Positions 1-49,006 are shown, numbered from the stretch's first letter. The stretch: 49,006 nucleotides of DNA from Actinomycetota bacterium (GCA_046727455.1 JBKPCQ010000219.1:1-49006), one strand, 5' to 3'. The notes: generated from the sequence alone by a model not told the origin. Translations and numbers: made by a program.

Positions 1-1248
1 GGCCGGTGCGGCGCCGGGCAGCGGCAGCCAGCGGGTCCGGCTCGGCCCGGCGGCCAGCCCACGCAGGCGTACCGCCGCGTCGACGGCGTCGGCGGCCATC
101 CGCCGGTACGTCGTCAGCTTGCCGCCGACCACGGTCACCACGCCGTCCGGCCCGCTCCGCACGACGTGCCGGCGGGACAGGTCGGCGGTGCGGCTCGCGC
201 CGGCGTCCAGCAGCGGCCGCAGCCCGGCGTACGCGCCGAGCACGTCGGCCCGCCGGACCGGCCTTTCCAGCACCAGGTTGAGAGTCTCCAGCAGGTACCG
301 GATGTCAGCCTCGGGCGCCTCGGGGACGTCCGGCAGCGGACCGTCGAGCGGCTCGTCGGTCAGCCCGGCGTACACCCGCCCGTCCCCTTGGGGGAGCGCG
401 AAGACGTACCGGTTCAGCTCGCCCGGCACGGGCACCATGAGCCCCGCGCCCAGCCCGCCGAACGCCGCGCTCCCGAGGACGACGTGGCTGCCACGCGACG
501 GCCGCATCCGGACCTCGGGGGCGAGCGTGCCGGCCCACACGCCGGTCGCGTTCACCACGGCGCGCGCCTTCACGGTGAACGCCGTGCCGGTCAGCTCGTC
601 CCGCACCTCGGCACCGTCACCGGCCAGGGCCGTGGCGCGGCACCGGGTCAGGATCCGGGCGCCCAGCCCGGCCGCGGCCCGCGCCAGGCCGATCACCAGC
701 CGGGCGTCGTCGCACAGCTGGCCCTCCCAGAACAGCAGCCCGCCGCGCAGATCCGCGGCGCGTAGCGCCGGTACCAGCGTGTGCGACTCCAGAGCGGACA
801 GCCGGCGGGACACCGGCAGCACCCGCCGGGGGGTACCGGCGGCGGCGCGCAACACCTCGCCCGCCGCGCCGGCCGCCGCGGTGAAGGCGATGGATGCGGT
901 GTTCGACGACGCGATCCGGGGCACGACGATCGGTAGCGCGCGGATCAGGTGCGGCGCGGTACGGGTCATCAGCACGTGCCGCTCCTGTGCGCTCCCGTAC
1001 GCGACGCCGAACTCCAGCCGCGCGAGGTACCGCAGCCCGCCGTGCACCAGCTTGGAGCTCCACCGCGAGGTGCCGAACGCCAGGTCGTGCGCGTCGATCG
1101 CGGCGACCCGCAGGCCCCGCGAGGCGGCGTCGAGCGCGGTACCGGCACCGGTGGCGCCCAGGCCGACGACGAGTACGTCGAGCACGTCGCCGCGGGCCAG
1201 CGCGGCCAGATCGCGTGCCCGGCGGGCGGCGTTGAGCGAGGTCGTCAC
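1..1248 (-). CDS. glpD: FAD-dependent glycerol-3-phosphate dehydrogenase (GlpD family); the C-terminus runs off the window
   Basis: Absent from the supplied track because the frame is open at the window edge. My own minus-strand translation from GTG 1248 reads MTTSLNAARRARDLAALARGDVLDVLVVGLGATGAGTALDAASRGLRVAAIDAHDLAFGTSRWSSKLVHGGLRYL. This has a GxGxxG FAD fold and the GTSxxSSKLxHGGLRYL GlpD signature. The + strand ORFs 119..1264 and 166..765 are Arg/Ser/Pro-rich shadow frames. Confidence 0.8.
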   Translation of the reverse strand, partial: MTTSLNAARRARDLAALARGDVLDVLVVGLGATGAGTALDAASRGLRVAAIDAHDLAFGTSRWSSKLVHGGLRYLARLEFGVAYGSAQERHVLMTRTAPHLIRALPIVVPRIASSNTASIAFTAAAGAAGEVLRAAAGTPRRVLPVSRRLSALESHTLVPALRAADLRGGLLFWEGQLCDDARLVIGLARAAAGLGARILTRCRATALAGDGAEVRDELTGTAFTVKARAVVNATGVWAGTLAPEVRMRPSRGSHVVLGSAAFGGLGAGLMVPVPGELNRYVFALPQGDGRVYAGLTDEPLDGPLPDVPEAPEADIRYLLETLNLVLERPVRRADVLGAYAGLRPLLDAGASRTADLSRRHVVRSGPDGVVTVVGGKLTTYRRMAADAVDAAVRLRGLAAGPSRTRWLPLPGAAPA

Positions 1249-1268
1249 GCACCGCTCCTTGTGATCGA

Positions 1269-1293
1269 GTGACATTCTATGTAAGAGTGTCAC
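1269..1293. promoter_or_regulatory. Inverted repeat GTGACA-N13-TGTCAC in the divergent glpD / FAD-oxidase intergenic region (candidate operator)
   Basis: Read directly: gtgaca (1269-1274), ttctatgtaagag, tgtcac (1288-1293). The spacer is AT-rich in a GC-rich background. The repeat ends 2 nt before ATG 1296 and starts 21 nt from the glpD GTG. Confidence 0.3.
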
Positions 1294-1295
1294 AC

Positions 1296-2825
1296 ATGCC
1301 GGCGAGTACGGAAGAGGGCTGGGCGGGCTGGGGCGAGCCGGCCCGTGCGGTGCCGCTGCCGGATTCCATGCACGCGCTGCTGCGGGCTCTGGAGGCACGC
1401 CCCGGTCCCGGCCGGGTGGCGCTGGCCGACGCGGTACTCGCGGCGCCCCGGCTACCGGCGCCGGCCGAACGCGCGCTGGTGGCGGCGGTCGGTGCCGCGC
1501 ACGTCCACACCGACGACGCGAGCCGGGCCCGGCACTCCGCCGGCAAGTCAACCCCGGATCTGGTACGCCAGCGGGCCGGCCAGGCGCCGCACCCGCCGGA
1601 CGCGGTCGTCCGCCCCGGCTCGCACGACGAGGTGCTGGCCGTGCTGCGCGCGTGCACCGGGCATCGCGTCGCGGTCGTCCCGTTCGGCGGCGGTACCTCG
1701 GTCGTGGGCGGGCTCGCCGTCGCGTCCCGGCCGAGCATCGCGCTGGACCTCGGCCGGCTGGACCGGCTGCTCGCGGTCGATCCGGTGGCGCGGATCGCGA
1801 CGCTGCAGGCCGGCGTACGCGCGCCGGACGCCGACCGGCTGCTCGGCCGGTACGGGTACACGCTGGGCCACCTGCCGCAGTCCTACGAGTACGCGACGAT
1901 CGGCGGGTTCGCCGCGACCCGCTCCGCCGGCCAGGCGTCGGCCGGCTACGGGCGCTTCGACGACATGGTTGTCGGGCTGACCGTCGCGACCCCGGCCGGC
2001 AGCCTCGACCTGGGCCGGGCGCCGTCCTCGGCCGCCGGGCCGGACCTGCGTCAGCTCTTCCTCGGCTCGGAGGGCACGCTCGGGGTCGTCACCTCGGTCA
2101 CGGTACGGGTCCGGCCGGTACCGGTGCACCAGCGCTTCGAGGGCTGGCGGTTCCCGTCGTTCGAGGCTGGTACCGCCGCCGTGCGCCGGCTGGCCCAGGA
2201 CGGCCCGCTGCCGGCCGTGCTGCGCCTGTCCGACGAGTACGAGACCGCGCTGACCGCGCCGGGCGTCGACGGCTGCCTGCTGGTCGTGGGGTACGGGTCC
2301 GACCGGCCGGACGCCGCGGAGGCCTTGCGGGAAGCCGGCGGCGCGCCGCTGGGCCCGGAGCCGGGAGCGGCCTGGGCGGCCGGCCGGTTCGCCGCGCCCT
2401 ACCTGCGCGACGCCCTACTCGACGCGGGCGTCTTCGTCGAGGTGGTGGAGACCGCCGCGTTCTGGTCCCGGCTGCCTCCGCTCTACGCCGCCACCCGCAA
2501 CGCGTTGCTCGACGCCCTTGGCCCGGAGCCCGCGCTCGTCGGGTGCCACATCTCGCACGTGTACGAGACCGGCGCCTCGCTCTACTACACCGTCCTGTTC
2601 CGATCCGGCGAGGACGCGCTGTGCCGGTGGGCGGCGGCGAAGGCACGGGCCGGCGACGCGATCCTCGCGGGCGGCGGCACGATCAGCCATCATCACGGCG
2701 TCGGTACCGACCACCGCGACGGGTACGTCCGCGAGGTCGGCCCGTTGGCCGTCGAGCTGCTGCGGGCGGTGAAGTCCACAGTGGACCCCGCCGGGATCCT
2801 CAATCCGGGAGTCCTGCTGCCCTAG
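1296..2825 (+). CDS. FAD-linked oxidase (PCMH-type FAD-binding domain; alkyl-DHAP-synthase / glycolate-oxidase-like flavoprotein)
   Basis: Track ORF 1269..2825. I prefer ATG 1296 (MPASTEEGW) because 1269-1295 is the palindromic intergenic sequence. It has the VVPFGGGTSVVGG FAD-binding motif and a C-terminal ISHHHGVGTDH typical of the FAD-oxidase C-terminal domain. Confidence 0.85.
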   Translation: MPASTEEGWAGWGEPARAVPLPDSMHALLRALEARPGPGRVALADAVLAAPRLPAPAERALVAAVGAAHVHTDDASRARHSAGKSTPDLVRQRAGQAPHPPDAVVRPGSHDEVLAVLRACTGHRVAVVPFGGGTSVVGGLAVASRPSIALDLGRLDRLLAVDPVARIATLQAGVRAPDADRLLGRYGYTLGHLPQSYEYATIGGFAATRSAGQASAGYGRFDDMVVGLTVATPAGSLDLGRAPSSAAGPDLRQLFLGSEGTLGVVTSVTVRVRPVPVHQRFEGWRFPSFEAGTAAVRRLAQDGPLPAVLRLSDEYETALTAPGVDGCLLVVGYGSDRPDAAEALREAGGAPLGPEPGAAWAAGRFAAPYLRDALLDAGVFVEVVETAAFWSRLPPLYAATRNALLDALGPEPALVGCHISHVYETGASLYYTVLFRSGEDALCRWAAAKARAGDAILAGGGTISHHHGVGTDHRDGYVREVGPLAVELLRAVKSTVDPAGILNPGVLLP

Positions 2826-3397
2826 GCCGCCAGGTACCGGTCGAGCACCGCGCGCAGTTCGGCGTCCAGGTCGCCGTCTCCGTACCCGTCGGTGAACAGC
2901 GCCGAGGACAGCACGAACGACTGTGCCGTGAGCAGCACCGCGCGTGCCATCCGATCGGGGTCGCCGCGCCGGACGGAGCCGTCGCGCTGGCCGGCCCGCA
3001 CGGCGTCCGCGATGAACGCCAGCATCTCGTCCTGGCTGGCACCCCGCCGGTCGAGCAGGTACGGCAGCAGTACCTCCGGATCGACCTCGCGGATCTTCCG
3101 GAGGAGCGGGTGCGCGCGCAGGGTCGCGGCGGCCGCGACGATCTGCGCGACCGCGCGCCGCCGGGCCAGGCCGCGCCGGCGCGGCCCGCTGGTGGTGGCG
3201 ACCAGCACGCCGTGCCATTCCCGGCTCATCAGGTCGGCGACCAGCGACCGGACGTCGGGCCAGCGCCGGTAGATGGACATGCGGGAGACACCGGCACGGC
3301 GGGCCACGTCGGAAACGGTGGTCCGCCGGACTCCGTACGCCAGCACGCAGTCACGGGTCGCGTCGAGTACCGCGTCCTCGATCTCCGGTGACGCCAT
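2822..3397 (-). CDS. TetR/AcrR family transcriptional regulator
   Basis: Track ORF 2822..3397. The N-terminal HTH is RRTTVSDVARRAGVSRMSIYRRW. It overlaps the oxidase stop by 4 nt (convergent). Confidence 0.9.
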   Translation of the reverse strand: MASPEIEDAVLDATRDCVLAYGVRRTTVSDVARRAGVSRMSIYRRWPDVRSLVADLMSREWHGVLVATTSGPRRRGLARRRAVAQIVAAAATLRAHPLLRKIREVDPEVLLPYLLDRRGASQDEMLAFIADAVRAGQRDGSVRRGDPDRMARAVLLTAQSFVLSSALFTDGYGDGDLDAELRAVLDRYLAA

Positions 3398-3416: not shown

Positions 3417-3438
3417 CGTCCGGGTACCGCAGGCTCCG

Positions 3439-3714
3439 TCAGGCGAAGGCGCGTCGGGGATACGGGTGGTCCAGCATCGGATCGAGCTCGGCGCGGGGGA
3501 GCAGGAACGCCGCGGTGAGCGTGTCCACGCCCGTGCCGGTGGTGTCGGTCGGCCGGTAGGTGACCGTCGCCGCACGCGCGGAGGCGGTGACCACCAGGCC
3601 TGCTCGCCAGCTACCACCCCGGAAGACCCATACGGGATCGGCTGGGCGGTAACTGTCCGTAGATGCAACATCAGCAGGATTGCGCTGGTCGGGGTGGATC
3701 GTGGGGGCCGACAT
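3439..3714 (-). CDS. Hypothetical protein (91 aa), no recognisable domain
   Basis: Track ORF 3439..3747. ATG 3714 (MSAPTIHPDQ) is preceded by AGGAGG (complement of 3720-3725) with a 5-nt spacer. It ends 41 nt upstream of the TetR start on the same strand. Confidence 0.5.
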   Translation of the reverse strand: MSAPTIHPDQRNPADVASTDSYRPADPVWVFRGGSWRAGLVVTASARAATVTYRPTDTTGTGVDTLTAAFLLPRAELDPMLDHPYPRRAFA

Positions 3715-3842
3715 GTCCACCTCCTGGTCACTAAATGCTACCCACAAAGGTCCGCACGTGCGTTATCATCCTCGTTGTACCCTGCATAAGCAAGCGCACC
3801 TGCACGTGCATCAGCCCATTCAGCTTCCCCAAAGGACATGCC

Positions 3843-4073
3843 ATGCAAGAGACGCATAACGGAATGCCAGCGGGCCAACTGGACGTCATCTGGCGCAAGA
3901 GCGGCCGTAGCAACCCGAGCGGCAACTGTGTCGAGCTTGCCGCTCTCCCCGCGGGAGCCGCGGTCCGCAACTCCCGGGACCCGGAGGGGCCCGCGTTGAT
4001 CTACACGAGGGACGAGATCGTCGCCTTCATCCAGGGTGTGAAGGACGGCGACTTCGACCATCTGCTCGGGTAG
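3843..4073 (+). CDS. DUF397 domain protein (BldB / WhiJ-associated small protein type)
   Basis: Track ORF 3735..4073, with internal ATG 3843 (MQETHNG). WRKSGRSNPSGNCVELA matches the DUF397 core W-x-K-S-x-x-S-x-x-x-G-x-C-V-E. The upstream part of the ORF is a low-GC promoter-like region. Confidence 0.85.
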   Translation: MQETHNGMPAGQLDVIWRKSGRSNPSGNCVELAALPAGAAVRNSRDPEGPALIYTRDEIVAFIQGVKDGDFDHLLG

Positions 4074-4185
4074 GCGCGGAGAGCTTTCCGGGGGCCGGTC
4101 GGTCCGTCAACGGACTTCTATGACTCACCCTCAGCTCATGGCATGCTTACACCCGGACAAGTGAGCGGCCCGCGGGTTGAGGTGA

Positions 4186-5088
4186 GTGCATGAAGGTCGC
4201 CGCGTGACGGCGCCCAAGTCGGACGGCGGACCGGCCGGCGGCCCTACGGTCCTCCGCATACTGCTCGGCGCCCATCTGCGCAGGCTCCGGGAGGCCCGGG
4301 GGATCAGCAGGGAGGACGCCGGCTGGGAGATCCGCGCCTCCGAATCCAAGATCAGCCGGATGGAGCTCGGTCGGGTCGGCTTCAAGGAGCGCGACATCGC
4401 CGACCTGCTGAGCCTCTACGGCGTGGTCGACGAGCAGGAGCGGGCGCGGCTGCTCGCGCTGGCTCGCGACGCCAACACGCCGGGCTGGTGGCACCGGTAC
4501 GGGGACGTCCTGGAGACATGGTTCCAGCCGTTCCTGGGGCTGGAGGCGGCCGCCTCGATGGTCCGCAGCTACGAGGTCCAGTTCATCCCGGGCCTGCTGC
4601 AGACCAAGGAGTACGCGCGCGGCGTCTTCCTGCTCGACCAGCGGCGCGCCAAGCCGGAGGAGGTCGACCGCCGGGTCGCCCTGCGGGCCACCCGCCAGCA
4701 ACTGCTCGCGCGGCCGGATGCGCCGCTGTTCTGGACCGTGCTGGACGAGGCCGTGCTACGCCGGCCGATCGGCGGCCCGGAGGTGATGCGCGCCCAGCTC
4801 GAAGCGCTCATCGACGCGGCCACGCTGCCGAACGTCCGGATCCAGGTGATCCCGTTCCACGCCGGTGGCCACGCGGCGGCCGGAGGAGCCTTCACCATCC
4901 TGCGCTTCCCCGACCAGCACCTGCCGGACATCGTCTACCTCGAACAGCTCACCGGCGCGCTGTACCTGGACAAGCGGGACGACGTCGACCTCTACGTCGC
5001 GGCGATGGAGCGGCTGTGCGTGGAGGCGGAGCAGCCGGACCGGACTCCCGAGATCATCCGGGAGATTCTCAAGACGACGGCGCGCTAG
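4186..5088 (+). CDS. XRE-family HTH regulator with DUF5753-type C-terminal domain (WhiJ/Scr1-like)
   Basis: Track ORF 4186..5088 (GTG start; alternative GTG at 4204). The HTH is LRRLREARGISREDAGWEIRASESKISRMELGR, followed by the long C-terminal domain typical of actinomycete WhiJ-like regulators. Confidence 0.85.
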   Translation: MHEGRRVTAPKSDGGPAGGPTVLRILLGAHLRRLREARGISREDAGWEIRASESKISRMELGRVGFKERDIADLLSLYGVVDEQERARLLALARDANTPGWWHRYGDVLETWFQPFLGLEAAASMVRSYEVQFIPGLLQTKEYARGVFLLDQRRAKPEEVDRRVALRATRQQLLARPDAPLFWTVLDEAVLRRPIGGPEVMRAQLEALIDAATLPNVRIQVIPFHAGGHAAAGGAFTILRFPDQHLPDIVYLEQLTGALYLDKRDDVDLYVAAMERLCVEAEQPDRTPEIIREILKTTAR

Positions 5089-5091
5089 ACA

Positions 5092-5131
5092 CGCAGCATG
5101 TCGGAGCGGCTACCAGTCAGCGATTGTCGGC
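5092..5131 (+). repeat. Dispersed repeat family R2, copy 1 (core CGCAGCnTGTCGGAGCGGCTACCAGTCAGCGnTTGTCrGC)
   Basis: 37/40 identical to 27581-27620 by hand alignment. It lies between the XRE stop (5088) and overlaps the last codons and stop of the convergent TetR (stop at 5117-5119). Confidence 0.85.
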
Positions 5132-5791
5132 CGCGCAGGCGGCCGGGTAGTTGATCCCGGCCTCCAGCAGGGTGACGGCCCGCTCGACCAGTACCGAGGG
5201 CAGGGCGTCGGGCTCGTCGTCGCGCCAGGCCTCGACGGTCGTCTGGATCGTCGACATGATGACCGCGGCGACCAGCTTGGGCCGGGGATCGGTGGCCGGA
5301 TCCACGCCCATCCGAGTGGCGACCTTGTCCGCCAGCTCGTCCATCCGCTCGGTGCACTGTTCCAGGTTGCGGGCGGCCAGGCTCGGACTCTTCGACAGCA
5401 GCCGGACCACGGAGGCGAAGCGCTCGGGCGGTAGCTCGGTCTGCCCGGCCTCGCAGGCCCGCAGCGCCTCGACCATGGCCTTGCGGATGGCGGTCAGGAC
5501 CGGCTCGCCGGCCGGGCGCGCCTCGAACGCCGCGAAGATCGCCGTCCACTGCTCGTCGACCACGCGCAGGACGACGTCGTCCTTTGAGGTGAAGTACCGG
5601 AAGAAGGTCCGGGCGGAGACCATGACCGAGCCGGCTATCTCCTCGACCGTGGTCGCCTCGAACCCCTTCCGCGCGAACAGCTCGAACGCCGCGCCGACCA
5701 GAGCCTCGCGGGTGTGCTGCTTCTTGCGCTCCCGCAGTCCGGGCCGGTCCGCGAACGGAGCGACCGGCTGGGGGTGCACGGCCGTGTCCAT
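5117..5791 (-). CDS. TetR/AcrR family transcriptional regulator (divergent from MFS pump)
   Basis: Track ORF 5117..5878. ATG 5791 (MDTAVHPQ) is preferred because 5792-5878 carries three palindromes. The HTH is TVEEIAGSVMVSARTFFRYFTSKDD. Confidence 0.85.
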   Translation of the reverse strand: MDTAVHPQPVAPFADRPGLRERKKQHTREALVGAAFELFARKGFEATTVEEIAGSVMVSARTFFRYFTSKDDVVLRVVDEQWTAIFAAFEARPAGEPVLTAIRKAMVEALRACEAGQTELPPERFASVVRLLSKSPSLAARNLEQCTERMDELADKVATRMGVDPATDPRPKLVAAVIMSTIQTTVEAWRDDEPDALPSVLVERAVTLLEAGINYPAACAADNR

Positions 5792-5837
5792 GCCCGGCAG
5801 TTTACCTCCGGAGTCATCGGCGGACTTTATTCCCGAG

Positions 5838-5897
5838 GTGACTGTCGTCACCAAGCGACGTAAGTCGCTTGACGACATCTGTCATCGGCTGACAGAT
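5838..5897. promoter_or_regulatory. Three palindromes in the TetR/MFS divergent promoter region (candidate TetR operators)
   Basis: Read directly: GTGAC-TGTC-GTCAC (5838-5851), AGCGAC-GTAA-GTCGCT (5854-5869) and ATCTGTCA-N5-TGACAGAT (5877-5897). The last ends 8 nt before the MFS ATG at 5905. Confidence 0.45.
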
Positions 5898-5904
5898 TCG
5901 CTCC

Positions 5905-7500
5905 ATGACGCAGTCAATGTTGATCGAGGCGGCGCCGGCTCGGCCGGGCAGGGTCGAAGGCCGCCGCCGGGCGGGGCACGGTCATCCCTGGCTCACCCTC
6001 CTAGCCGTCGCGCTCGGCGTGATGATGGTCGGGCTCGACGCCACGGTCGTCGCCATCGCCAACCCGGCCATCGCCCGGGACCTGCACGCCGACCTGGCCG
6101 GCCTGCAATGGGTCACCAACGGGTACCTGCTGGCGATCGCGGTCTCGCTGATCACCGCAGGCAGGCTGGCCGACCGGATCGGCCGCAAGCGCGTCTTCCT
6201 GATCGGCGTCGCCGGATTCGCGGTCGCCTCGGTCGCGGTCGGCCTCTCCACCACCATCGGCCTGGTCATCCTGTTCCGGGTCCTGCAGGGCCTGTTCGGC
6301 GCGCTGCTGCAACCCGCCAGCCTGGCGATCATCCGCAACACCTTCCCGCCCGAGCGGCTCAACATGGCGATCGGCATCTGGAGCGGTACCTCCGGCCTGG
6401 CCATCGCGAGCGGCCCGATCGTGGCCGGGCTGCTCGTCCAGCACGTGAGCTGGCAGTCGGTCTTCTACCTGAACGCGCCGATCGCGGTACTCGGGCTGGC
6501 GCTGGGGGGCTGGGTGATCCGGGAGTCGCGGGATCCCGAGGCCCACGGATCGTTCGACATTCCCGGCGTGCTGCTGCTGTCCGGTACCCTCTTCACGCTG
6601 GTGTGGGGCCTGATCAAGGCGCAGGCGTACGGCTTCGGCGACCCGTTGCCCCTCGTGTTCTTCGCGGTCGCGGTGGTCCTCGGGATCGCCTTCGTGGTGC
6701 GCGAGCAGCGCACCCCCCATCCCGTGCTTCCGCTGGGGGTGTTCCGCTCGGTGTCGGTGTCCGCCGGTACCGTGCTGGTGACCCTCGGGTTCTTCGCCCT
6801 CTTCGGCGCGTTCTTCTTCCTGACCCTGTACCTCCAGCAGGTGCACGGGATGGGGCCGGTCGACGCCGGGGTACGGCTGCTGCCGATGACCGCCACGTTC
6901 ATCGTCGCCTCGCCGCTCGCCGGGTACCTGACCACGCGCCTCGGCCCGCGGCCGCCGCTGGCGCTCGGCATGCTCCTGTCCGCCGTCGCGCTGCTCGCGC
7001 TGTCCCGCCTGTCGGCCGGCGCCGCGTACCACGACCTGTGGCCGTGGTTCGTGGTGATCGGGACCGGCTTCGGGCTGGTCATCGTCGCCGGTACCGAGGC
7101 GATCGTCGGCAACATGCCGAAGCACCTGGCCGGGCTGGCCGGGGGCATCCAGCAGACCGGGGCGCAGATCGGCGGGGTGCTCGGTACCACGATCTTCGGC
7201 ACCGTCCTCGCCACCCGGGTCGGCGACGTGCTCGTCGACCGGCTGACCGGCGCCGGGGTGCCGGGCGTACTCGCCCCCAACCTGCTGCCGGCCAAGCAGT
7301 TCGTCGCCCAGGGCGGGGCACCGGTACCGGCCGGCACGCCGGAGCCGCTGGCCCGGGCGATCACGCTCGGCAGTCACCTCGCGTTCATGGACGGGTTCCG
7401 GATCGCGTTCGTGGTCGGCGCCGCCGTCGCGGTCGCCGCCGCGCTGGCGGCGCTACTGGTCCGCCGGGGTACTGGATCGAGCGCGGCGGTCGCCGCCTGA
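5905..7500 (+). CDS. MFS transporter, DHA2 (EmrB/QacA-like, 14-TMS type) drug:H+ antiporter
   Basis: Track ORF, 531 aa. Motifs include LDATVVAIANPAIARDL and GRLADRIGRKRVF, with many hydrophobic segments. It is divergent from a TetR. Confidence 0.9.
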   Translation: MTQSMLIEAAPARPGRVEGRRRAGHGHPWLTLLAVALGVMMVGLDATVVAIANPAIARDLHADLAGLQWVTNGYLLAIAVSLITAGRLADRIGRKRVFLIGVAGFAVASVAVGLSTTIGLVILFRVLQGLFGALLQPASLAIIRNTFPPERLNMAIGIWSGTSGLAIASGPIVAGLLVQHVSWQSVFYLNAPIAVLGLALGGWVIRESRDPEAHGSFDIPGVLLLSGTLFTLVWGLIKAQAYGFGDPLPLVFFAVAVVLGIAFVVREQRTPHPVLPLGVFRSVSVSAGTVLVTLGFFALFGAFFFLTLYLQQVHGMGPVDAGVRLLPMTATFIVASPLAGYLTTRLGPRPPLALGMLLSAVALLALSRLSAGAAYHDLWPWFVVIGTGFGLVIVAGTEAIVGNMPKHLAGLAGGIQQTGAQIGGVLGTTIFGTVLATRVGDVLVDRLTGAGVPGVLAPNLLPAKQFVAQGGAPVPAGTPEPLARAITLGSHLAFMDGFRIAFVVGAAVAVAAALAALLVRRGTGSSAAVAA

Positions 7501-14201: not shown

Positions 14202-14315
14202 CCGACGATTGTTCCATCGAGCGCGGGTGAGTTTCGTAACCTCCCAGAGGCTCAACGTTTCGTGTCGAACCCGATACGATCGGTTAGCCGTTCCACAACA
14301 CCTGGGGAGGCTCTG

Positions 14316-15557
14316 GTGGATCGCCGTTCGTGGCTGCCTGAAGACCTGCGCGCCTACCACCGCGGCCTGCTGCTGCGGCTGTTGACCGAAGAAGGCCCGC
14401 TGACCCGCCGGGATCTGGCGCGGCACAGCGGGCTGAGCATCCCCACGGTCGCCTCGATCATCAGCCACCTGCTGGCGGCGGGAGAGGTCGGGGAGTCGGT
14501 ACCGGTGTCCGCCGGCGCCGTCGCGCCGCGCGGACCCCGCGCCGCCCTGGTCACCGTCGCCCGGCACGCCCACGTGGTGCTCGGTGTGGACCTGTGCGCC
14601 AACCGGATCCGGGCCGGCCTGTGCGACCTGTGCGGCGTCGTGTCAGAGGCGGTCTCGGTACCGGTTCCGGGCGGGCTGCCGCCGGCCGGGCTGCTCGACC
14701 TCGCGATCGAGGCGGCGCGACCGCTCGCCGATTCGGCCGGCGACCGGCTGATCGGTGTCGGCGTCGCGGTACCCGGCCCGGTCGACGAGGACGGCCGGCG
14801 CAGCCTGCTCGCCCTACCGCTCGGCTGGCACGACGTACCGGTGGCCGAGCGCTTCGAGGAGGCGCTCGGGGCTCCGGCTGTCGTCGAGTACAACGTCCGG
14901 GCGATGGCGCTGGCGGAGGCGCGGCACGGCCTCGGGGTACGCGCGGAGAACCTGCTCTACGTCCACCTCGGCGCCGGCCTCGGGGTCGCGTTCGTGGTCG
15001 ACGGGCGGCCCTTCCGGCAGGGCGCCCACGGGGTCTCCGAGCTGGGCCACCACCGGGTCGTCGAGCGCGGGCCGCGGTGCTCCTGCGGCGCCGTGGGCTG
15101 CCTGGAGGCCCTGCTGGGGGAGGCGTACCTGCGCCGGCGGATCCGCGAGGCGGCGGGGGAACGCCCGGCGCTGGCGGCGCTGGTCCGGCGCCGGATGCCG
15201 GTACTGGAGCTCCTGGACCGCGCCGTCCAGGACGGCGACCGGGCGGCCGGGGAGATCCTCGACGACGTCGTCACCCACCTCGGTACCGTGGTCGCGCTGA
15301 GCGTCGACCTGCTCAGCCCGGCCCGGGTGGCGCTCGGCGGCGAGCTGGCCTCGGCACCGAAGGAGGTGCTGGAGAGGCTCTGCGCCGCGATCCGTGGGAA
15401 GGTCAGCCAGGTGCTGCGGGACCAGGTGCGGATCGAGCGCTCGGCGGTCGGCCGGTACCCGGGGCTGATGGGCGCCGGTACCGTCGCGTTGGACCGGCTG
15501 TTCTACCGCGACCAGCCGCCGGTCCTGCCAGCCGGGACCGCCCGGCGGCGGCCCTGA
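14316..15557 (+). CDS. ROK family transcriptional regulator
   Basis: This is the 3' third of the composite track ORF 11967..15557. GTG 14316 is preceded by GGGGAGG (14304-14310). It has a winged HTH LTRRDLARHSGLSIPTVASIISHL and the ROK zinc motif CSCGAVGCLEA. Confidence 0.85.
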   Translation: MDRRSWLPEDLRAYHRGLLLRLLTEEGPLTRRDLARHSGLSIPTVASIISHLLAAGEVGESVPVSAGAVAPRGPRAALVTVARHAHVVLGVDLCANRIRAGLCDLCGVVSEAVSVPVPGGLPPAGLLDLAIEAARPLADSAGDRLIGVGVAVPGPVDEDGRRSLLALPLGWHDVPVAERFEEALGAPAVVEYNVRAMALAEARHGLGVRAENLLYVHLGAGLGVAFVVDGRPFRQGAHGVSELGHHRVVERGPRCSCGAVGCLEALLGEAYLRRRIREAAGERPALAALVRRRMPVLELLDRAVQDGDRAAGEILDDVVTHLGTVVALSVDLLSPARVALGGELASAPKEVLERLCAAIRGKVSQVLRDQVRIERSAVGRYPGLMGAGTVALDRLFYRDQPPVLPAGTARRRP

Positions 15558-15628
15558 GCCGCCTCCTCTCCATTCTTGGCCGCCGAAACATCTGGCGGCG
15601 GTACCGGCGCCGGTCGGAGGATGGCGGG

Positions 15629-17350: not shown

Positions 17351-17408
17351 CGGAACTCGAACATTGCGTTGATCCTGGGGCATGGCCGGGTCGCACAGGG
17401 TGGGGCGC

Positions 17409-18893
17409 ATGACTCGTTATCGCCGCTCGCTGGCGCTCACCGCCGTGGTGGGCGCCGTGCTGCTGGCCGGCTACGCCGGCCCCCGTGCGGGGTTCGCATC
17501 GACCCAGGCCACCACCCGGCCCAACGTGGTGTTCGTGCTGACCGACGACCTGTCGTGGGACCTGGTGCGGTACCTGCCGCAGGTGCGCCAGCTCCAGGCC
17601 GACGGCCGTACCTTCACCGACTACACGGTGACCGACTCGCTGTGCTGCCCGTCCCGCTCGTCCATCTTCACCGGCCGCTTCCCGCACGACACCGGCGTGT
17701 TCACCAACGGCGGCTCGGACGGTGGGTTCGGCTTCTTCCACAGCCACGGGGAGGAGGCGCACACGTTCGCGACCGCGCTGCAGGCGCAGGGGTACCGGAC
17801 CGCGATGATGGGCAAGTACCTCAACGGGTACCTCCCCGCCGCGACCCTCGGCGGCACCCAGCCGTACGTGCCGCCGGGCTGGACCGAGTGGGACGTCGCC
17901 GGCAACGGGTACCCCGAGTTCGACTACAACCTCAACGAGAACCACCGCATCGTGCACTACGGCGCCGCGCCGCAGGACTACCTGACCGACGTGCTGTCCC
18001 GCAAGGGCGTGAAGTTCATCGCCGACTCGGCGGCCAGGCGCCAGCCGTTCCTGCTGGAGATCGCGACGTTCGCCCCGCACGCGCCGTATACGCCCGCGCC
18101 CCGCGACGCCAACTCCTTCCCCGGGCTGACCGCCCCGCGCGGTGCGGCGTTCGACACCCTGCCGACCGACGCGCCGCCGTGGCTGGCCGGCCGGGCGCCG
18201 CTGACGGCCGCCGAGAAGACCGTCATCGACACGAGCTACCGCAAGCGGGCGCAGGCGGTACAGGCGGTGGACCGGATGATCGGCAATCTGCGCGCGACGC
18301 TCAAGGCCGCCGGGGTCGCCGGGAACACGCTCATCGTCTTCAGCTCCGACAACGGGTACCACATGGGCCAGTACCGGCTGAACCCCGGCAAGATGACGGC
18401 GTTCGACACCGACATCCGGGTACCGCTCATCGTCGCCGGGCCCGGTGTCCCGGCCGGCACGACGAGCACGTCCCAGGTGGAGAACATCGACCTGGCCCCG
18501 ACCTACGAGCAACTGGCCGGCGCGCCGGTACCGTCCGATGTGGACGGTCGTAGCCTCGTACCATTGCTGCGCGGCGGGGCCGGCGAGGGCTGGCGCACCG
18601 CCGCGCTCGTCGAGCACCACGGACCCGACACGCTCGCCGGTGACCCCGACCTGCCCGCGCCCAACTCCGGCAACCCGCCGAGCTACGAGGCGATCCGCAC
18701 CGGGGTGTACACGTACGTCGAGTACGTCGACGGCTCGCGCGAGTACTACGACCGGTTGAGTGACCCGCTCGAACTGCACAACCTCGCCGGAACGCTCGGC
18801 GCCGCGCGGCTGGGCCGGCTGCACGCCGCGCTGACCCGGCTGGCGAACTGCCACGGTAGCGCCTGCTGGGGTGCCGGCCACGTGACGGCCTGA
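17409..18893 (+). CDS. Type I sulfatase (formylglycine-dependent), secreted
   Basis: Track ORF 17382..18893. ATG 17409 gives MTRYRRSLALTAVVGAVLLAG, a possible Tat/Sec signal. CCPSRSSIFTGR contains the C-x-P-x-R motif, and VVFVLTDD is the sulfatase N-terminus. Confidence 0.85.
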   Translation: MTRYRRSLALTAVVGAVLLAGYAGPRAGFASTQATTRPNVVFVLTDDLSWDLVRYLPQVRQLQADGRTFTDYTVTDSLCCPSRSSIFTGRFPHDTGVFTNGGSDGGFGFFHSHGEEAHTFATALQAQGYRTAMMGKYLNGYLPAATLGGTQPYVPPGWTEWDVAGNGYPEFDYNLNENHRIVHYGAAPQDYLTDVLSRKGVKFIADSAARRQPFLLEIATFAPHAPYTPAPRDANSFPGLTAPRGAAFDTLPTDAPPWLAGRAPLTAAEKTVIDTSYRKRAQAVQAVDRMIGNLRATLKAAGVAGNTLIVFSSDNGYHMGQYRLNPGKMTAFDTDIRVPLIVAGPGVPAGTTSTSQVENIDLAPTYEQLAGAPVPSDVDGRSLVPLLRGGAGEGWRTAALVEHHGPDTLAGDPDLPAPNSGNPPSYEAIRTGVYTYVEYVDGSREYYDRLSDPLELHNLAGTLGAARLGRLHAALTRLANCHGSACWGAGHVTA

Positions 18894-18899
18894 GCGCCG

Positions 18900-18932
18900 C
18901 GACGGTACCCGGCCGGCGGCCGGGTACCGTCG
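18900..18932. terminator. Perfect 15-bp stem hairpin between sulfatase and decarboxylase (terminator or attenuator)
   Basis: cgacggtacccggcc ggc ggccgggtaccgtcg, checked base by base. It starts 7 nt after the sulfatase stop and ends 17 nt before ATG 18949. Each arm carries a GGTACC site. Confidence 0.55.
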
Positions 18933-21102: not shown

Positions 21103-21150
21103 CGCGGGGAGCTTATACGTGGTGGTCGGCGGGGCGCACGCGAGATACAG

Positions 21151-43746: not shown

Positions 43747-43821
43747 GCCGGTAGTGGTACCCGGGAAAGGGTGGCATGAAGCCGGGATTCGCCGGCCACC
43801 GCCGGCTCGCACCCTGGCAGT

Positions 43822-47117: not shown

Positions 47118-47170
47118 GGAGGCGTCGTCCCCCGTTCGGGACGCGGTAAACAGGCGTATCCATGCCGATC

Positions 47171-47563
47171 TCAGACTGGCACCGTCCGGCTGGTCGAGTC
47201 GATGTGGTCGATCCGCCCGTCGGGCGCGAGGTGCCCGTGCATGAACACTTCGTTCATGAGCGTCGTTCCCTGGCGCATCTCGGTCCGGAGCGTGTACCGG
47301 ACGGCGAACCGGCTGTCGCGCACGAGGATGTCGTGCACCTCGGTGTGCAGGCCGAGCACGTTCTTCCGGGCCGGGCCGGCGTGCTGGGCCAGCCGGTCGC
47401 GGTCGAGCCGGACGCCGTCGTGGTACTGCTCGAAGTCCGGCGCGTAGTAGCGGTCGACGACAACGGACGGATCCTCGTCGCTGAAGGTCAGCGCCTCCGG
47501 CACCGCGGTCAGCAGCGCCGCGAGACTTCGTTCGGCATCGGTGCGGTCATCGCGCGTCGGCAC
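47171..47563 (-). CDS. NTF2/SnoaL-like fold protein
   Basis: Track ORF 47171..47626. GTG 47563 is preferred because GGGGAGGA lies 5 nt upstream. It overlaps the upstream peroxiredoxin-like gene by 17 nt. Confidence 0.65.
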   Translation of the reverse strand: MPTRDDRTDAERSLAALLTAVPEALTFSDEDPSVVVDRYYAPDFEQYHDGVRLDRDRLAQHAGPARKNVLGLHTEVHDILVRDSRFAVRYTLRTEMRQGTTLMNEVFMHGHLAPDGRIDHIDSTSRTVPV

Positions 47564-48140
47564 GGGAGTCCTCCCCGGTGGTGGTGCGGGCCAGGTCGAG
47601 CAGTGTGTCGACCGGCCACTGGTCAAAGGCGTGGTCGCCGTACCGGACGGCGACCAGCCGCCCGTCGCTCGCGATCAGGAAGTCGGCCGGCAGGCCGAGC
47701 CGGCCGTTGGGCTGCCGCATGCTGGGCGGCCGTTTCCTTCCCCGGATGATCGCGACCAGGTCGATCGTGATCGCCCGGGCGAGGTGCCGCCAGACCCGCG
47801 GGTCCAGCAGCGCCCGCGGGGCCGACTCCACGCCGAACTCCGCGTACAGCCGCTTGCGCGGATCCGCCACGACGGCGAAGGGCAGGCCGTCGGTGTGGGC
47901 CCGCAGCTCCTTGGCCGGCGAGTGGAAGACCACCACCTCGCGCACGCCCGCCGCCTCGATCTCGCCGTGCCGGCGGACGATCGAGCGCAGGTGCAGGTTG
48001 CACAGCGGGCAGCCGGCGAACCGCCGGAACTGCAGATGCACCAGCCGGTGCGGGTCCGGTACCGGTACCGACTCGTCGTCGACCGTGATCAGCGTGCGCG
48101 CCGGGACCGTCGTCCCCGGCTGCAACCGATGAACCGCCAT
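47547..48140 (-). CDS. Peroxiredoxin-like (AhpC/TSA family) protein
   Basis: Track ORF, 197 aa. FAGCPLCNLH is a CxxC motif in a thioredoxin-fold context. Confidence 0.85.
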   Translation of the reverse strand: MAVHRLQPGTTVPARTLITVDDESVPVPDPHRLVHLQFRRFAGCPLCNLHLRSIVRRHGEIEAAGVREVVVFHSPAKELRAHTDGLPFAVVADPRKRLYAEFGVESAPRALLDPRVWRHLARAITIDLVAIIRGRKRPPSMRQPNGRLGLPADFLIASDGRLVAVRYGDHAFDQWPVDTLLDLARTTTGEDSRADAR

Positions 48141-48155
48141 GTCGTCCTCCCCCGA

Positions 48156-48200
48156 TAGGCGTACGATGTACTCCTACCAACTGTAGGCGTATGGCGTACG
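48156..48200. promoter_or_regulatory. Repeated TAGGCGTA / GGCGTACG motifs in the peroxiredoxin / TetR divergent region (candidate operators)
   Basis: TAGGCGTA occurs at 48156-48163 and 48184-48191. GGCGTACG occurs at 48158-48165 and 48193-48200. Confidence 0.3.
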
Positions 48201-48820
48201 CTGTCAAGGCCATGCCCCGCCCGCGTTCGCTGACCCACGACCACATCGCGGCGGCGGCCCTCGCCGTCATCGACCGTTCGGGGCTCGCCGCGCTGTCGAT
48301 GCGCACCGTCGCGGCCGAGCTGGGCATGGGAACGATGTCGCTGTACCGCTACGTCAAGGGCCGGGAGCAGCTCGAACGGCTGGTCGTCGAACTCGTGCTG
48401 CGCGACATCGATCTGCGGGTCGACGCCGGTACGCCGTGGACCGACCGGGTCGCCGTGATCGCCGGACGCATCCGCCACGCGGTGAGCGCCCACCCGGCGG
48501 TCGTCCCGTTGTTCGTCATCCACCGGAGCACCAGCGTCGGCGTCATGCGCTGCGGCGAGGCGTTGCTGGGCATCCTGGCCGGTGCCGGGTTCACCGGGGC
48601 GGAGCGGGTCGTGGCGTTCCGGACCGTCTTCAGCTACCTGGTCGGGGCGTTCACCACCGAGCACCTCGGCTCGTTGTCGGGGCCGGGTACGGCGGCGCTG
48701 GCCCGGCTGCCGCGCACCGCCTATCCGTTCCTGGCCGAGACCGCGGGCGTGGCCCGCCACGTCAGCCCCGACGACGAGTTCGCCGGAGGGCTCGCGATCA
48801 TCCTGCGCGGCCTGCGCTGA
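48191..48820 (+). CDS. TetR/AcrR family transcriptional regulator
   Basis: Track ORF, 209 aa, with an alternative ATG at 48212 (MPRPRSL). The HTH is SMRTVAAELGMGTMSLYRYVKGREQ. Confidence 0.85.
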   Translation: MAYAVKAMPRPRSLTHDHIAAAALAVIDRSGLAALSMRTVAAELGMGTMSLYRYVKGREQLERLVVELVLRDIDLRVDAGTPWTDRVAVIAGRIRHAVSAHPAVVPLFVIHRSTSVGVMRCGEALLGILAGAGFTGAERVVAFRTVFSYLVGAFTTEHLGSLSGPGTAALARLPRTAYPFLAETAGVARHVSPDDEFAGGLAIILRGLR

Positions 48821-48825
48821 GATGT

Positions 48826-49006
48826 TGGCGCTCGCTCCGCTCGCGCGGCACCGAGGCTCCTCAGGCGACGTCTTCCCTCGTCGCTGCGCTCCTCAGTCCA
48901 GACGGCGCCCGCCTCGGTGCGACGTGTTGGCGCTCGCTTCGCTCGCGCGGCACCGAGGCTCCTCAGGCGCCGTCTTCCCTCGTCGCTGCGCTCCTCAGTC
49001 CAGACG
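48826..49006 (+). repeat. Repeat family R1, copies B and C in tandem (102-nt period); copy C is cut by the window end
   Basis: Copy B is 48826-48927 and copy C is 48928-49006, with 2 mismatches in 79 nt. Copy B has the stem GCACCGAGGC (48848-48857) / GCCTCGGTGC (48911-48920). The array starts 5 nt after the TetR stop. Confidence 0.9.

Follow-up and report, generated by a model that had tools for sequence, protein, structure and literature searches.

Features of the window

The window, that is, the whole 49,006-nt stretch of DNA that was analyzed, contains exactly 124 copies of the palindrome GGTACC (2.53/kb, about one per 400 bases), 115 of which lie within intact genes with Pfam matches, at positions that align without indels to orthologues. 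The first base of each copy and the features used below are as follows.

GGTACC first bases, part 1: 294, 770, 832, 1026, 1138, 1692, 2117, 2169, 2703, 2833, 3423, 6122, 6385, 6583, 6766, 6923, 7090, 7183, 7323, 7895, 8306, 9023, 9257, 9788
GGTACC first bases, part 2: 10048, 10375, 10795, 12679, 12832, 13074, 13703, 13874, 14498, 14657, 14768, 15282, 15454, 15477, 15600, 16090, 16129, 16235, 16731, 16851, 17569, 17791, 17827, 17908, 18355, 18419, 18527, 18904, 18923, 19635
GGTACC first bases, part 3: 20385, 21252, 21349, 21867, 22098, 22150, 22514, 22576, 22869, 23508, 23606, 24506, 24727, 24864, 25388, 25445, 25946, 26104, 26911, 27930, 28091, 28597, 28735, 29130
GGTACC first bases, part 4: 30214, 30411, 30648, 30751, 30962, 31065, 31342, 32075, 32224, 32237, 32338, 33371, 33607, 33754, 34183, 34468, 34876, 35047, 35152, 35233, 35598, 36181, 36354, 36989, 37331, 38612, 39044
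GGTACC first bases, part 5: 40328, 41092, 41709, 41960, 42369, 42440, 43524, 43685, 43756, 43897, 44677, 44881, 45075, 45096, 45367, 45522, 46866, 48058, 48064
6385..6390, plus strand: register 0 example, GGT-ACC (Gly-Thr), inside an MFS transporter gene (5917-7500)
6122..6127, plus strand: register 1 example, xGG-TAC-Cxx (Gly/Arg/Trp-Tyr-Leu/Pro/His/Gln/Arg)
7323..7328, plus strand: register 2 example, xxG-GTA-CCx (Val-Pro, rare GTA codon)
18900..18932, no strand: intergenic perfect hairpin (CGACGGTACCCGGCCG / CGGCCGGGTACCGTCG) directly 3' of a sulfatase stop codon, with one GGTACC per arm (18904, 18923)
48058..48069, minus strand: two abutting sites (GGTACCGGTACC) within an AhpC/TSA-like gene (47547-48125)
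15282..15287, plus strand: recently gained, polymorphic site in a ROK-family gene, compared across clade contigs
17569..17574, plus strand: polymorphic site, GTA here and GTC in the near-identical contig L086
12501..14201, minus strand: class I lysyl-tRNA synthetase (LysRS) gene with 5 sites, used as orthologue marker
3424..6121, no strand: sole long site-free stretch (2.7 kb), with a lower GC of 0.70

A preliminary description of this DNA had arrived by hand at about 124 sites, with 10 in 1-3000 and 8 in 5881-7500, and the exact counts are identical. Its register examples (6385 for GGT-ACC, 6122 for xGG-TAC-C, and 7323 and 2117 for xxG-GTA-CC) lie where it had placed them, and its hairpin pair occupies both arms of a perfect inverted repeat; the back-to-back pair is likewise real, but had been quoted one base off, at 48059-48070. 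The site-free stretch holds two regulator genes, HTH_31/DUF5753 (4204-5088) and TetR (5117-5791), with zero encodable Gly-Thr, Val-Pro, or eligible Tyr contexts, as well as 2 of the window's 6 copies of GAGCTC, and may represent more recently acquired DNA.

Site abundance and chance expectation

With the base composition of the window (G 0.371, C 0.362, T 0.141, A 0.126), 15.7 sites are expected, close to the earlier estimate of about 16, and an order-1 Markov model yields 12.3. Expectations rise to 73, 100, and 116.6 at orders 2, 3, and 4; the last formally absorbs the excess, which the preliminary description had regarded as grounds for rejection, yet the comparison is uninformative because the pentamers GGTAC (208) and GTACC (213), each 5-fold enriched and part of the signal, are conditioned on. 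The order-4 fit does imply that the outer two bases are nearly independent once the GTAC core is given. Shuffling synonymous codons within genes leaves 28.8±4.4 sites (maximum 41 in 300 shuffles) against 115 observed in coding DNA (z≈19), and permuting whole codons leaves 17.9±4.3; codon-preserving shuffles therefore fall well short of the observed count, as the earlier reading requires.

The one-off words CGTACC (53) and GGTACG (54) are each enriched about 3.4-fold, in line with the roughly 3-fold first reported. The C...G flank noted at the same time is indeed frequent, CGGTACCG occurring 41 times; however, it is no part of the motif, since out-group sites share it (a fraction of 0.52 versus 0.58). 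Spacing between sites is Poisson-like (CV 1.02, KS p=0.48), position along genes is uniform (KS p=0.33), and the window's 124 sites bear no sign of the regular spacing that a fixed needed density would give.

Lineage specificity

The comparison with relatives that had been proposed at the outset separates the window sharply from them. Across 154 related actinomycete loci, about 2.3 Mb in total, the density is approximately 0.2 GGTACC/kb; the 80 related genome loci (1.6 Mb of genome sequence) range from 0 to 0.51 sites/kb versus 2.53/kb in the window, and 0.67 Mb of related metagenome sequence has 0.24 sites/kb. A clade of soil-metagenome contigs whose LysRS is ≥79-80% identical, on the other hand, mostly contains 2.4-3.6 sites/kb. 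Six of seven enriched loci fall into this one LysRS clade, and a second marker, GH15, draws the same sharp boundary between enriched and non-enriched loci. The enrichment is confined to a single clade of uncultured actinomycetes from soil, which appears related to Micromonosporales. Within it, GGTACC ranks first among all 2,080 hexamer classes as an outlier (12x, z≈50), its density being roughly 12 times that of related bacteria, whereas CTCGAG and GAGCTC follow the opposite, classic avoidance pattern. The enrichment extends over all the native clade DNA sampled, about 105-110 kb on several contigs, all found via LysRS and GH15, and most of it flanks or is orthologous to one of these genes; the whole-genome extent is an extrapolation.

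Distortion of codons and amino acids

In the window, the three codon registers contain 42 (register 0), 33 (register 1), and 40 (register 2) sites, and 3,994 nt of non-coding DNA contain 9 (2.25/kb), against 1.36 sites expected by composition. Since neither reading frame nor strand affects the enrichment, and non-coding DNA shares it, the pressure acts on the DNA word; that it operates at the DNA level rather than the coding level, as the preliminary description had argued from its enrichment in all registers, is strongly supported.

Codon choice follows the word closely. Gly-Thr is spelled GGTACC in 39% of cases in the clade versus 2% in relatives, nnG-Val-Pro contexts spell it in 64% versus 3%, and eligible Tyr contexts form it in 83% versus 27%; log odds ratios of site use between clade and relatives are 2.6-4.0. 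For instance, the probability of GTA among Val codons in the clade is 0.64 in the G-GTA-CC context (0.03 in relatives in the same full context), 0.21-0.25 where a single pentamer would be completed, and 0.005 in all other contexts; GTA and GGT, both rare codons, are used almost solely where GGTACC is completed. Moreover, the eligible Tyr tripeptide context is 1.75x commoner in the clade (P=4e-6) and the Val-Pro dipeptide 1.17x commoner (P=0.01); the pressure for GGTACC bends codon choice and even some amino acids.

Neighbouring words, gain, and retention

The preliminary description had looked to depletion of single-mutation neighbours, and this expectation failed: GGTATC/GATACC stand at 0.88x (11 vs 12.5 expected), GGTACT/AGTACC are enriched 2.8x, and clade hexamer counts contain no depleted donor or neighbouring word. 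Only outer-position one-off variants are enriched (2-3x), inner-position ones remaining at about 1x, while the bare GTAC core is depleted to 0.69x and CGTACG to 0.45x. The clade contig L081 contains a horizontally acquired island that has low GC3, adjoins a Tn3-family transposase fragment, and carries the clade's sole CTCGAG copies; the whole non-native stretch of L081 (13001-21701) has a single GGTACC in 8.7 kb (P=2e-5). On such recently imported DNA the GGTACC force has yet to act.

Orthologous positions lacking the site bear GGTGCC, GGTCCC, GGCACC, CGCACC, GAGACC, or AGCACC, and the site-creating changes comprise C→T, G→A, C→A, C→G, and A→G together with amino-acid replacements, including G/C→A/T at the central TA and C→G transversions at the outer base. 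At 15282, GGTACC (Gly-Thr) is shared by the window and L086. L087, a 99.7%-identical contig, reads AGTACG, and two clade members at a greater distance, L085 and L093, read AGCACC (Ser-Thr); the site was gained via an amino-acid change. The 17569 site differs from L086 by an A/C transversion at a central position, and L093 has GCTACA there. The force is still operating, as sites are polymorphic among 99.7%-identical contigs, and the spectrum of gains points to a fixation bias rather than a mutation-type bias.

Retention exceeds the background in two comparisons: 21/35 and 12/15 sites persist, where hexamers as a whole persist in 38% and 45% of cases (P=0.006 each). With the amino-acid context conserved, 20/21 sites remain, compared with a codon identity of 65% at four-fold positions (P=0.0015). 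Occupancy in one genome also goes with occupancy in another (Fisher P=0.002), although part of this apparent conservation could be independent re-creation, given the high occupancy.

Interpretation and alternative explanations

With confidence slightly above even, GGTACC is read here as a HIP1-like highly iterated palindrome, in which a force on the duplex word raises its fixation and retention whatever it encodes. A newly arisen GGTACC would have a higher chance of fixation and retention. The bias uses any mutational route, works per site and near-additively on two half-sites (GGTAC on each strand), and overrides strong codon bias; the steady-state density would reflect a balance of this bias against codon and GC3 pressure. 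The word would be read by a protein recognizing a symmetric duplex, probably a GGTACC methyltransferase, for which a solitary DNA methyltransferase of KpnI/Acc65I specificity is the most likely candidate. Marked sites might then have an advantage in some process acting on DNA among clade members, for example homologous recombination, gene transfer, or repair. The ~110 kb of clade DNA revealed no gene for a DNA methyltransferase, nuclease, Vsr, or competence, and natural transformation is not a known trait of such actinomycetes. In cyanobacteria, methylated HIP1 is currently read as raising transformation and recombination efficiency (bioRxiv 2024.09.10.611283, 2026.06.24.733823). In these data, the patterns expected from selection for a cellular function coincide with those expected from a drive based on recombination or repair.

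Two alternatives place the cause in DNA repair. Very-short-patch repair, the first possibility named in the preliminary description, would have an m5C methyltransferase mark GGTACC and a Vsr-like endonuclease over-correct T:G to C:G, converting T-containing words; the frame-independent enrichment recalls CCWGG in E. coli, where the Vsr effect is far below 12-fold, and GGTATC is absent from the window's coding DNA (0 vs 3.7 expected), a weak and underpowered hint. However, the deamination-product words are not depleted in the clade, and most orthologous ancestors depart from the site at its central T/A, or through transversions and amino-acid changes; these gains are of non-T→C types, so T:G→C:G correction is unable to generate them. 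Furthermore, a 12-fold excess with 40-80% occupancy lies far above known Vsr effects, and neither Vsr nor an m5C methyltransferase was seen in the clade DNA (~110 kb). M.KpnI is an m6A enzyme. The GGTACC methyltransferase M.Acc65I (type II beta) is likewise characterized as an N6-adenine enzyme (m6A) and not m5C (PMC5364224). The mechanism is considered very improbable. A generalized ratchet, proposed by Elhai for HIP1 and alternative HIPs (PMC4390886), in which a methyltransferase marks the word or its core and mismatch processing preferentially keeps the strand that bears or creates a complete site, abundance being a functionless by-product, is unlikely. It predicts gains through any substitution type, outer-position intermediates (NGTACC, here at 2-3x), and a core that is depleted when unflanked, all of which are observed. 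Against it, Elhai's version requires MutS/MutL-type methyl-directed repair, and actinomycetes are not known to have MutS/MutL, using NucS/EndoMS instead; it also requires a G-methyl-C dinucleotide, which GGTACC lacks, and a methyltransferase, which the ~110 kb did not yield, and under it the density should saturate at around one site for each repair tract rather than reach 2.5-3.5/kb with Poisson spacing.

Direct selection, with GGTACC as the binding site of a nucleoid-associated or architectural protein whose benefit rises with site number, is comparably doubtful. Additive half-sites and a tolerated outer base fit a binding-energy landscape, and retention above background is also known from HIP1 (Xu et al., PMC5861425); however, the sites prefer no particular position within genes or between them, spacing is irregular, the candidate protein is without a known example, and a fitness gain per extra site is hard to see at 2.5/kb, while its predictions coincide with those of a drive. 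That the excess is a by-product of GC content, codon usage, dinucleotide bias (TA mostly in GTAC), or amino-acid usage could be argued from the order-4 expectation and from GTAC being 1.1-2.6x over composition in all related actinomycetes, the latter because Tyr TAC follows G-ending codons. This account is ruled out by the codon-preserving shuffles, the hexamer ranking, relatives of equal GC and codon bias with their low density, equally enriched non-coding DNA, and rare-codon use strictly tied to the GGTACC context, the Markov fit merely mirroring the overlapping pentamers; its probability is negligible. Equally negligible is an origin from copies of a mobile or repeated element of small size (REP/MITE-like), or from an artefact of assembly or library preparation containing a KpnI site, which the two sites in one intergenic hairpin might suggest: it is refuted by the intact, indel-free gene context, by flanks that are unconserved beyond generic C/G with no extension of the palindrome, and by recurrence of the bias in independent JGI, NCBI, and ENA assemblies.

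Comparison with known systems

So far as the literature found shows, such a palindrome is unreported in Actinomycetota. The word is identical to the KpnI/Acc65I restriction-modification site (M.Acc65I; PMC5364224), but where a restriction enzyme is active, the genome usually avoids the recognition site, and here GGTACC is hyper-abundant. Dcm/Vsr-related distortions (E. coli CCWGG, CTAG-type words) are likewise frame-independent palindrome effects attributed to a methyltransferase-linked DNA process, as is proposed here; they differ in the direction and spectrum of site-creating changes, in the undepleted deamination-product words, in a magnitude several-fold larger for GGTACC, and in the m6A chemistry of the characterized methyltransferase. 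The uptake sequences DUS (Neisseria) and USS (Pasteurellaceae) occur at about 1/kb in all frames, distort peptide usage, pair up in inverted orientation within terminator hairpins, do not occur in foreign DNA, and are kept by a transmission drive of uptake and recombination. GGTACC resembles them in density, frames, peptide distortion, its hairpin pair, and its scarcity in foreign DNA, but is a 6-nt palindrome where they are non-palindromic words of 9-12 nt, and their action requires natural competence together with a specific receptor, neither of which is known for this lineage or occurs in the ~110 kb of clade DNA.

The closest resemblance is to the unexplained HIP1 (GCGATCGC) and other cyanobacterial HIPs, namely GGGATCCC in Synechococcus JA strains, GGCGCC in Calothrix PCC 7103, GCsGC in Cyanothece PCC 7822, and rCCGGy in Oscillatoria PCC 10802 (PMC4390886, PMC5861425). 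The host phylum differs (Actinomycetota at 73% GC), and GGTACC is a hexamer with an A/T centre whereas HIP1 is a GATC/CGATCG-centred octamer; enrichment over composition is 8-12x, below the 15-300x of the longer HIP1 word, a cognate methyltransferase was not identified in the ~110 kb examined, the MutS/MutL proteins central to Elhai's model are generally absent from actinomycetes, and the 10-90 kb periodicity of HIP1 compares with a window of only 49 kb. In other respects the systems agree. HIP1 one-off variants deviate mainly at outer positions (Elhai, PMC4390886), as do those of GGTACC, and both are short, hugely over-represented palindromes that occupy all reading frames as well as intergenic DNA, persist among relatives more than the background does, and are lineage-specific, with the word varying between lineages; the 2.5-3.5/kb seen here falls inside the HIP range of 0.3-2.7/kb or slightly exceeds it.

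Abundance and Placement of GGTACC in the Window

The 49,006 bases of the window contain exactly 124 GGTACC sites (2.53 per kb), against 15.7 expected from base composition. The preliminary description had arrived at about 124 by hand, and its count, its base composition and its local tallies (10 sites in 1-3000 and 8 in 5881-7500) agree with the exact computation; the example sites that it quoted are all present, each in the codon register assigned to it. Its intergenic hairpin sites at 18904 and 18923 lie in the two arms of a perfect inverted repeat (18900-18932), and its back-to-back pair exists, one base away from where it had been placed, at 48058-48069. Codon statistics yielded 45 genes (92% coding), most of them with Pfam matches, and these are ordinary actinomycete chromosomal genes, including a class I lysyl-tRNA synthetase (LysRS; 12501-14201, minus strand), AsnB, MFS transporters, an NB-ARC/TPR protein, ECF sigma factors, GH15 and others.

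The preliminary description would have counted it as a refutation if codon-preserving shuffles reproduced the number of sites, and they clearly do not: 300 shuffles of synonymous codons within each gene leave 28.8±4.4 sites, and never more than 41, where the coding DNA has 115 (z≈19), and permuting whole codons leaves 17.9±4.3. The coding sites are spread over all registers (42 GGT-ACC, 33 xGG-TAC-Cxx and 40 xxG-GTA-CCx), and a further nine are non-coding, at 2.25 per kb and with a total of 1.36 expected. One stretch of about 810 nt (20350-21159) was left without a gene call, with rival long ORFs on both strands (20344-21735, minus; 20362-22326, plus); the gene called at 21160-22326, to which Pfam gives no match, may have an earlier start, in which case the site at 20385 would be coding.

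Markov models of order 0 to 4 give expectations of 15.7, 12.3, 73, 100 and 116.6 sites in the window. At order 4 the excess is thus formally absorbed, an outcome that the preliminary description had taken to be decisive; it is not a refutation, because the pentamers on which the model conditions, GGTAC (208 copies) and GTACC (213 copies), belong to the signal themselves, with an enrichment of about 5-fold for each. The maximal-order null was therefore set aside as a refutation and kept as evidence of near-independent half-sites, since its fit shows that, once the GTAC core is fixed, the outer G and the outer C occur almost independently of each other.

The spacing of sites in the window is Poisson-like (CV 1.02, KS P=0.48, variance/mean 0.75-1.0), sites are distributed uniformly along genes, and the use of encodable positions is homogeneous across genes; regular spacing, clustering and within-gene positional preference were looked for in the window, and none was found. 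Rfam and tRNA scans of the window gave no matches. The sole long gap, at 3424-6121 (2.7 kb), coincides with two regulator genes that lack any encodable context:

4204-5088, HTH_31/DUF5753 regulator, no Gly-Thr, Val-Pro or eligible Tyr context
5117-5791, TetR regulator, no Gly-Thr, Val-Pro or eligible Tyr context

Together, these genes have 0 encodable contexts in 520 codons, with 7-9 expected. The gap has a lower GC content, holds two of the window's six GAGCTC sites and may be younger DNA.

Restriction to One Lineage

Among 80 LysRS-orthologue loci from named genomes, including Streptomyces, Sphaerisporangium, Microbispora, Nonomuraea, Actinoplanes, Hamadaea and Actinokineospora, GGTACC occurs at 0-0.51 per kb (73-79% protein identity), and 74 further metagenomic out-group loci (665 kb) carry 0.24 per kb. 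The closer relatives of the window are metagenome contigs only, and the bias is common to them; the window and these contigs are hereafter called the clade. An exact look-up of the window's own LysRS in the contig index gave no entry. Samples that contain the clade are JGI 3300078493, 3300078518 and 3300012209, the Ga0066708-10 and Ga0137367/8 samples, NCBI GCA_009772795.1, GCA_009772125.1, GCA_009772025.1 and GCA_009772835.1, and ENA ERZ27253183.

GGTACC density in metagenome contigs of the clade (contig; LysRS identity; GGTACC per kb)
L086, L087; 100%; 3.0-3.2
L085; 89%; 2.9
L081, native part; 86%; 1.5 (other 86% contigs, 1.5-2.5)
L091, L093, L098; 80-81%; 3.6, 3.1, 2.5
L092, short contig; 79%; 1.2

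The LysRS tree groups six of the seven enriched loci together in a single clade, and L098 falls in an unresolved polytomy next to sequences of Actinocatenispora and Actinokineospora that are not enriched. The GH15 marker at the other end of the window gives the same sharp boundary, with 2.4 sites per kb in an 87% relative and 0.32 per kb in 81% and 73% relatives; its best named matches are Micromonosporaceae at no more than 74% identity, and the clade is therefore probably a lineage near Micromonosporales. A contig of an Actinocatenispora metagenome-assembled genome (L168) was considered as a named member and rejected, as it is not enriched in GGTACC.

Several observations stand beside this boundary. 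Five out-group metagenome loci (L105 and the JGI Ga0335xxx soil contigs L128, L130, L131 and L145) show a mild excess (0.7-1.0 per kb, 2-3x) without a high share of TA dinucleotides inside GTAC, which may be noise or a weaker effect of another kind. Class I (archaeal-type) LysRS occurs widely and with good conservation, at 73-80% identity, in Streptomyces, Streptosporangiales and Micromonosporales; the orders are not separated in its tree, a sign that the copy may be accessory or exchanged. Viral contigs were scanned for paired GGTACC sites in search of phages of the lineage or a phage-borne methyltransferase, and among the matches listed none resembled the clade; four IMG/VR contigs (L183, L230, L252 and L278; 56-66% GC) carry 1.4-2.6 sites per kb, 4-8x over composition, an excess that may reflect ascertainment bias, given that they were picked for already having two sites.

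Definition of the Word

In a comparison of all hexamers that set about 105 kb from the clade against 1.8 Mb of out-group DNA matched for GC, GGTACC ranked first by far (270 against 22 expected, 11.8x, z≈50; 279 against 23.2 with the clade contig L291 added), and the next-ranked hexamers were overlapping fragments of it. The C...G flank noted in the preliminary description was rejected as part of the motif, for out-group sites carry it equally (frequency 0.52 vs 0.58) and the word does not extend further as a palindrome. With both, one or neither of the G...C flanks, GTAC stands at 12.3x, 2.3x and 0.69x, respectively; among single-mismatch neighbours, only outer-position variants (NGTACC) are raised, by 2.0-3.0x, and inner-position variants (positions 2 and 3) lie at 0.88-1.34x. 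The half-site odds ratio for the flanks of GTAC is 1.5, and the contributions of the half-sites are therefore nearly additive. Moderately enriched words in the same comparison are the CCGG-containing GCCGGC (2.1x), ACCGGT (1.9x) and CCGGCC (1.8x), as well as CGATCG (1.8x), and purine-rich words such as AAGG, AGGG and CTCC are depleted.

Effects on Codon Usage and Protein Sequence

Clade genes write Gly-Thr as GGTACC in 39% of cases (2% in relatives) and choose GTA at 64% of nnG-Val-Pro positions (3% in relatives); of the [G/R/W]-Tyr-[L/P/H/Q/R] contexts, 83% make up the site (27% in relatives). Outside GTAC contexts, GTA makes up 0.5% of Val codons, equal to relatives, and there is therefore no shift in codon preference itself. 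Log odds ratios of 2.6-4.0 for site use serve as a rough scaled fixation bias per site. The clade proteome is itself slightly bent by GGTACC, with the eligible Tyr tripeptide context 1.75x commoner (P=4e-6) and Val-Pro 1.17x commoner (P=0.01) than in relatives.

Putatively Imported DNA and Under-represented Words

A putative horizontally acquired stretch, L081:13001-21701, lies beside a Tn3-family transposase fragment and contains a single GGTACC over its 8.7 kb (P=2e-5). GGTACC is missing from its CHAT-domain and S8-peptidase genes (13981-17891), whose GC3 is 0.81-0.84, compared with about 0.95 elsewhere, and the island holds the clade's only two copies of CTCGAG (17820 and 17835) together with six of the ten GAGCTC copies of L081. 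Imported DNA is thus without the signature, as would be expected if resident DNA acquires it slowly.

No copy of the XhoI site CTCGAG occurs in 108.6 kb of native clade DNA (window 1-49006, L085, L091, L092, L093, L098, L291 and L081:1-13000), in which 18.7 copies are expected at the out-group rate (P≈8e-9); for the window alone, 15.7-22.9 copies are expected. Other under-represented words in the clade are GAGCTC (0.37x), CGTACG (0.45x) and GGGCCC (0.51x). The pattern of CTCGAG and GAGCTC looks like classic restriction-site avoidance, alongside the hyper-abundance of GGTACC.

Gain and Retention of Sites

In the LysRS codon alignment, the positions of clade sites read mostly GGTGCC, GGTCCC, GGCACC, CGTGCC, CGCACC, GAGACC or AGCACC in the 80 out-group sequences, and the gains have therefore come about by G/C→A/T changes in the centre, by transversions (C→G and C→A) and by replacement of amino acids (Gly-Thr from Glu-Thr, Arg-Thr or Ser-Thr). 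Clade members share their sites only in part, implying that gain and loss are still under way, and two sites are polymorphic among contigs 99.7% identical to the window. Position 15282 reads AGCACC in L085 and L093, AGTACG in L087 and GGTACC in the window and L086, a series that documents a recent gain via a Ser→Gly change.

In the 10.7 kb that are syntenic with L093 (82% nucleotide identity), L093 keeps 21 of 35 sites (60%), vs 38% of all hexamers (P=0.006), and the comparison with L085 gives 12 of 15 (80%), vs 45% (P=0.006). If only positions with the same amino-acid context in both genomes are counted, L093 has GGTACC at 20 of the 21 window sites, whereas four-fold codons agree in only 65% of cases (P=0.0015), and site presence is correlated between the two (Fisher P=0.002). 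Because occupancy is high (40-80%), part of this retention could be independent re-creation, and the figures do not separate selection from ongoing drive.

Origin of the Excess

The preliminary description raised, as one possibility, a very-short-patch-type repair bias tied to a GGTACC methyltransferase, analogous to the enrichment caused by Dcm/Vsr, and suggested looking for depletion of single-mutation neighbours. This reading fails. The deamination products are not depleted (GGTATC/GATACC 0.88x; GGTACT/AGTACC 2.77x), and the gains are not T→C (A→G) at a methylated cytosine, being mostly changes of the central T/A, C→G, C→A or amino-acid changes; the magnitude of the enrichment likewise speaks against the analogy. 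Moreover, the characterised enzyme M.Acc65I has m6A methylation chemistry (PMC5364224). A sink running GGCGCC→GGTGCC→GGTACC, through Vsr or m5C deamination, would deplete its donor words and was rejected, as GGCGCC stands at 1.07x and GGCACC/GGTGCC at 0.93x. A polar chromosome motif such as Chi or KOPS needs a strand-skewed, non-palindromic word; on the plus strand of the window, where GC skew is monotonic, the pentamer orientations are symmetric (GGTAC[^C] 84 vs [^G]GTACC 89). A REP- or MITE-type repeat is rejected by the lack of flank conservation, by the location of 93% of sites inside genes and by an orthologue alignment without indels.

Taken together, the data cannot be explained by a bias of one mutation type and require a fixation bias on the duplex word. 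We propose, by analogy with HIP1, the highly iterated palindrome of cyanobacteria, that the sites are marked by a reader specific to GGTACC, with a solitary methyltransferase as the likeliest candidate, and that the mark gives them an advantage in recombination, transfer or repair. [quoted passage not shown] Pfam annotation of the window, L081, L085 and L093 revealed no DNA methyltransferase, restriction enzyme, Vsr or competence gene, and no methyltransferase gene was found in about 110 kb of clade DNA. Elhai's ratchet, which is based on MutS and MutL, is inapplicable as written, because actinomycetes are not known to have either protein. It is conceivable, though we consider it improbable, that GGTACC is an independent actinobacterial HIP-like "self" word, in which methylated GGTACC would tag DNA for recombination or transfer within the clade or would give NucS/EndoMS mismatch repair its missing strand- or self-discrimination signal; were this true, hyper-abundant palindromes would have evolved convergently as a general system for marking genomes and would not be a cyanobacterial curiosity.

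Significance

Work on hyper-abundant palindromes has been confined almost entirely to cyanobacteria, where 30 years of study have not settled whether HIP1 is a repair by-product, a feature of chromosome architecture, or an uptake or recombination signal. A literature search for GGTACC hyper-abundance or HIP-like palindromes in actinomycetes found no report; the hyper-abundance described here is well documented at the sequence level, and its molecular reader and function are proposals. The present case supplies a second, unrelated example, an independent replicate for comparative tests with another word, phylum and mismatch-repair machinery, in which gene families co-occurring with both phenomena become prime candidates. 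The force is strong enough to override an extreme GC3 codon bias, with the share of GTA among Val codons in context at 64% instead of 3%, and it acts at the DNA level while also altering amino acids of a conserved aminoacyl-tRNA synthetase. In practical terms, GGTACC density and CTCGAG absence form a sharp signature by which contigs of the clade can be binned from soil metagenomes and horizontally acquired islands flagged within them.

Comparison with Known Systems

DNA uptake sequences (DUS/USS) resemble the clade word in their enrichment of about 1 per kb in all frames, absence from foreign DNA and inverted pairs in terminators, all of which GGTACC displays; however, they are non-palindromic 9-12-mers with a competence receptor and a naturally transformable host, whereas GGTACC is a palindromic hexamer without a conserved extension. 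The closest known phenomenon is HIP1, which together with its lineage-specific replacements (GGCGCC, GCsGC, rCCGGy and GGGATCCC) is tied to orphan methyltransferases and shares with GGTACC a similar density, frame independence, conservation and outer-position one-off variants (PMC4390886, PMC5861425). Both are over-represented short palindromes (roughly 0.3-2.7 per kb in the HIP range; 2.53 per kb and 12x vs related genomes for GGTACC) that occur in every frame and between genes (42/33/40, and 2.25 per kb in non-coding DNA) and are thus neither peptide nor RNA motifs. In both, sites are kept between related genomes above background (60% vs 38% and 80% vs 45% here), and one-off variants deviate mainly at the outermost positions (outer 2.0-3.0x, inner 0.88-1.34x). 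HIP1-type words also show a long-range periodicity of 10-90 kb; the window spans only 49 kb, and the local spacing of GGTACC in it is Poisson-like. Since HIP1 has a cyanobacterial host and a GATC/CGATCG-centred word, whereas the present host is an actinomycete and its word GGTACC, the clade word is an analogue of HIP1 and not a member in the narrow sense.
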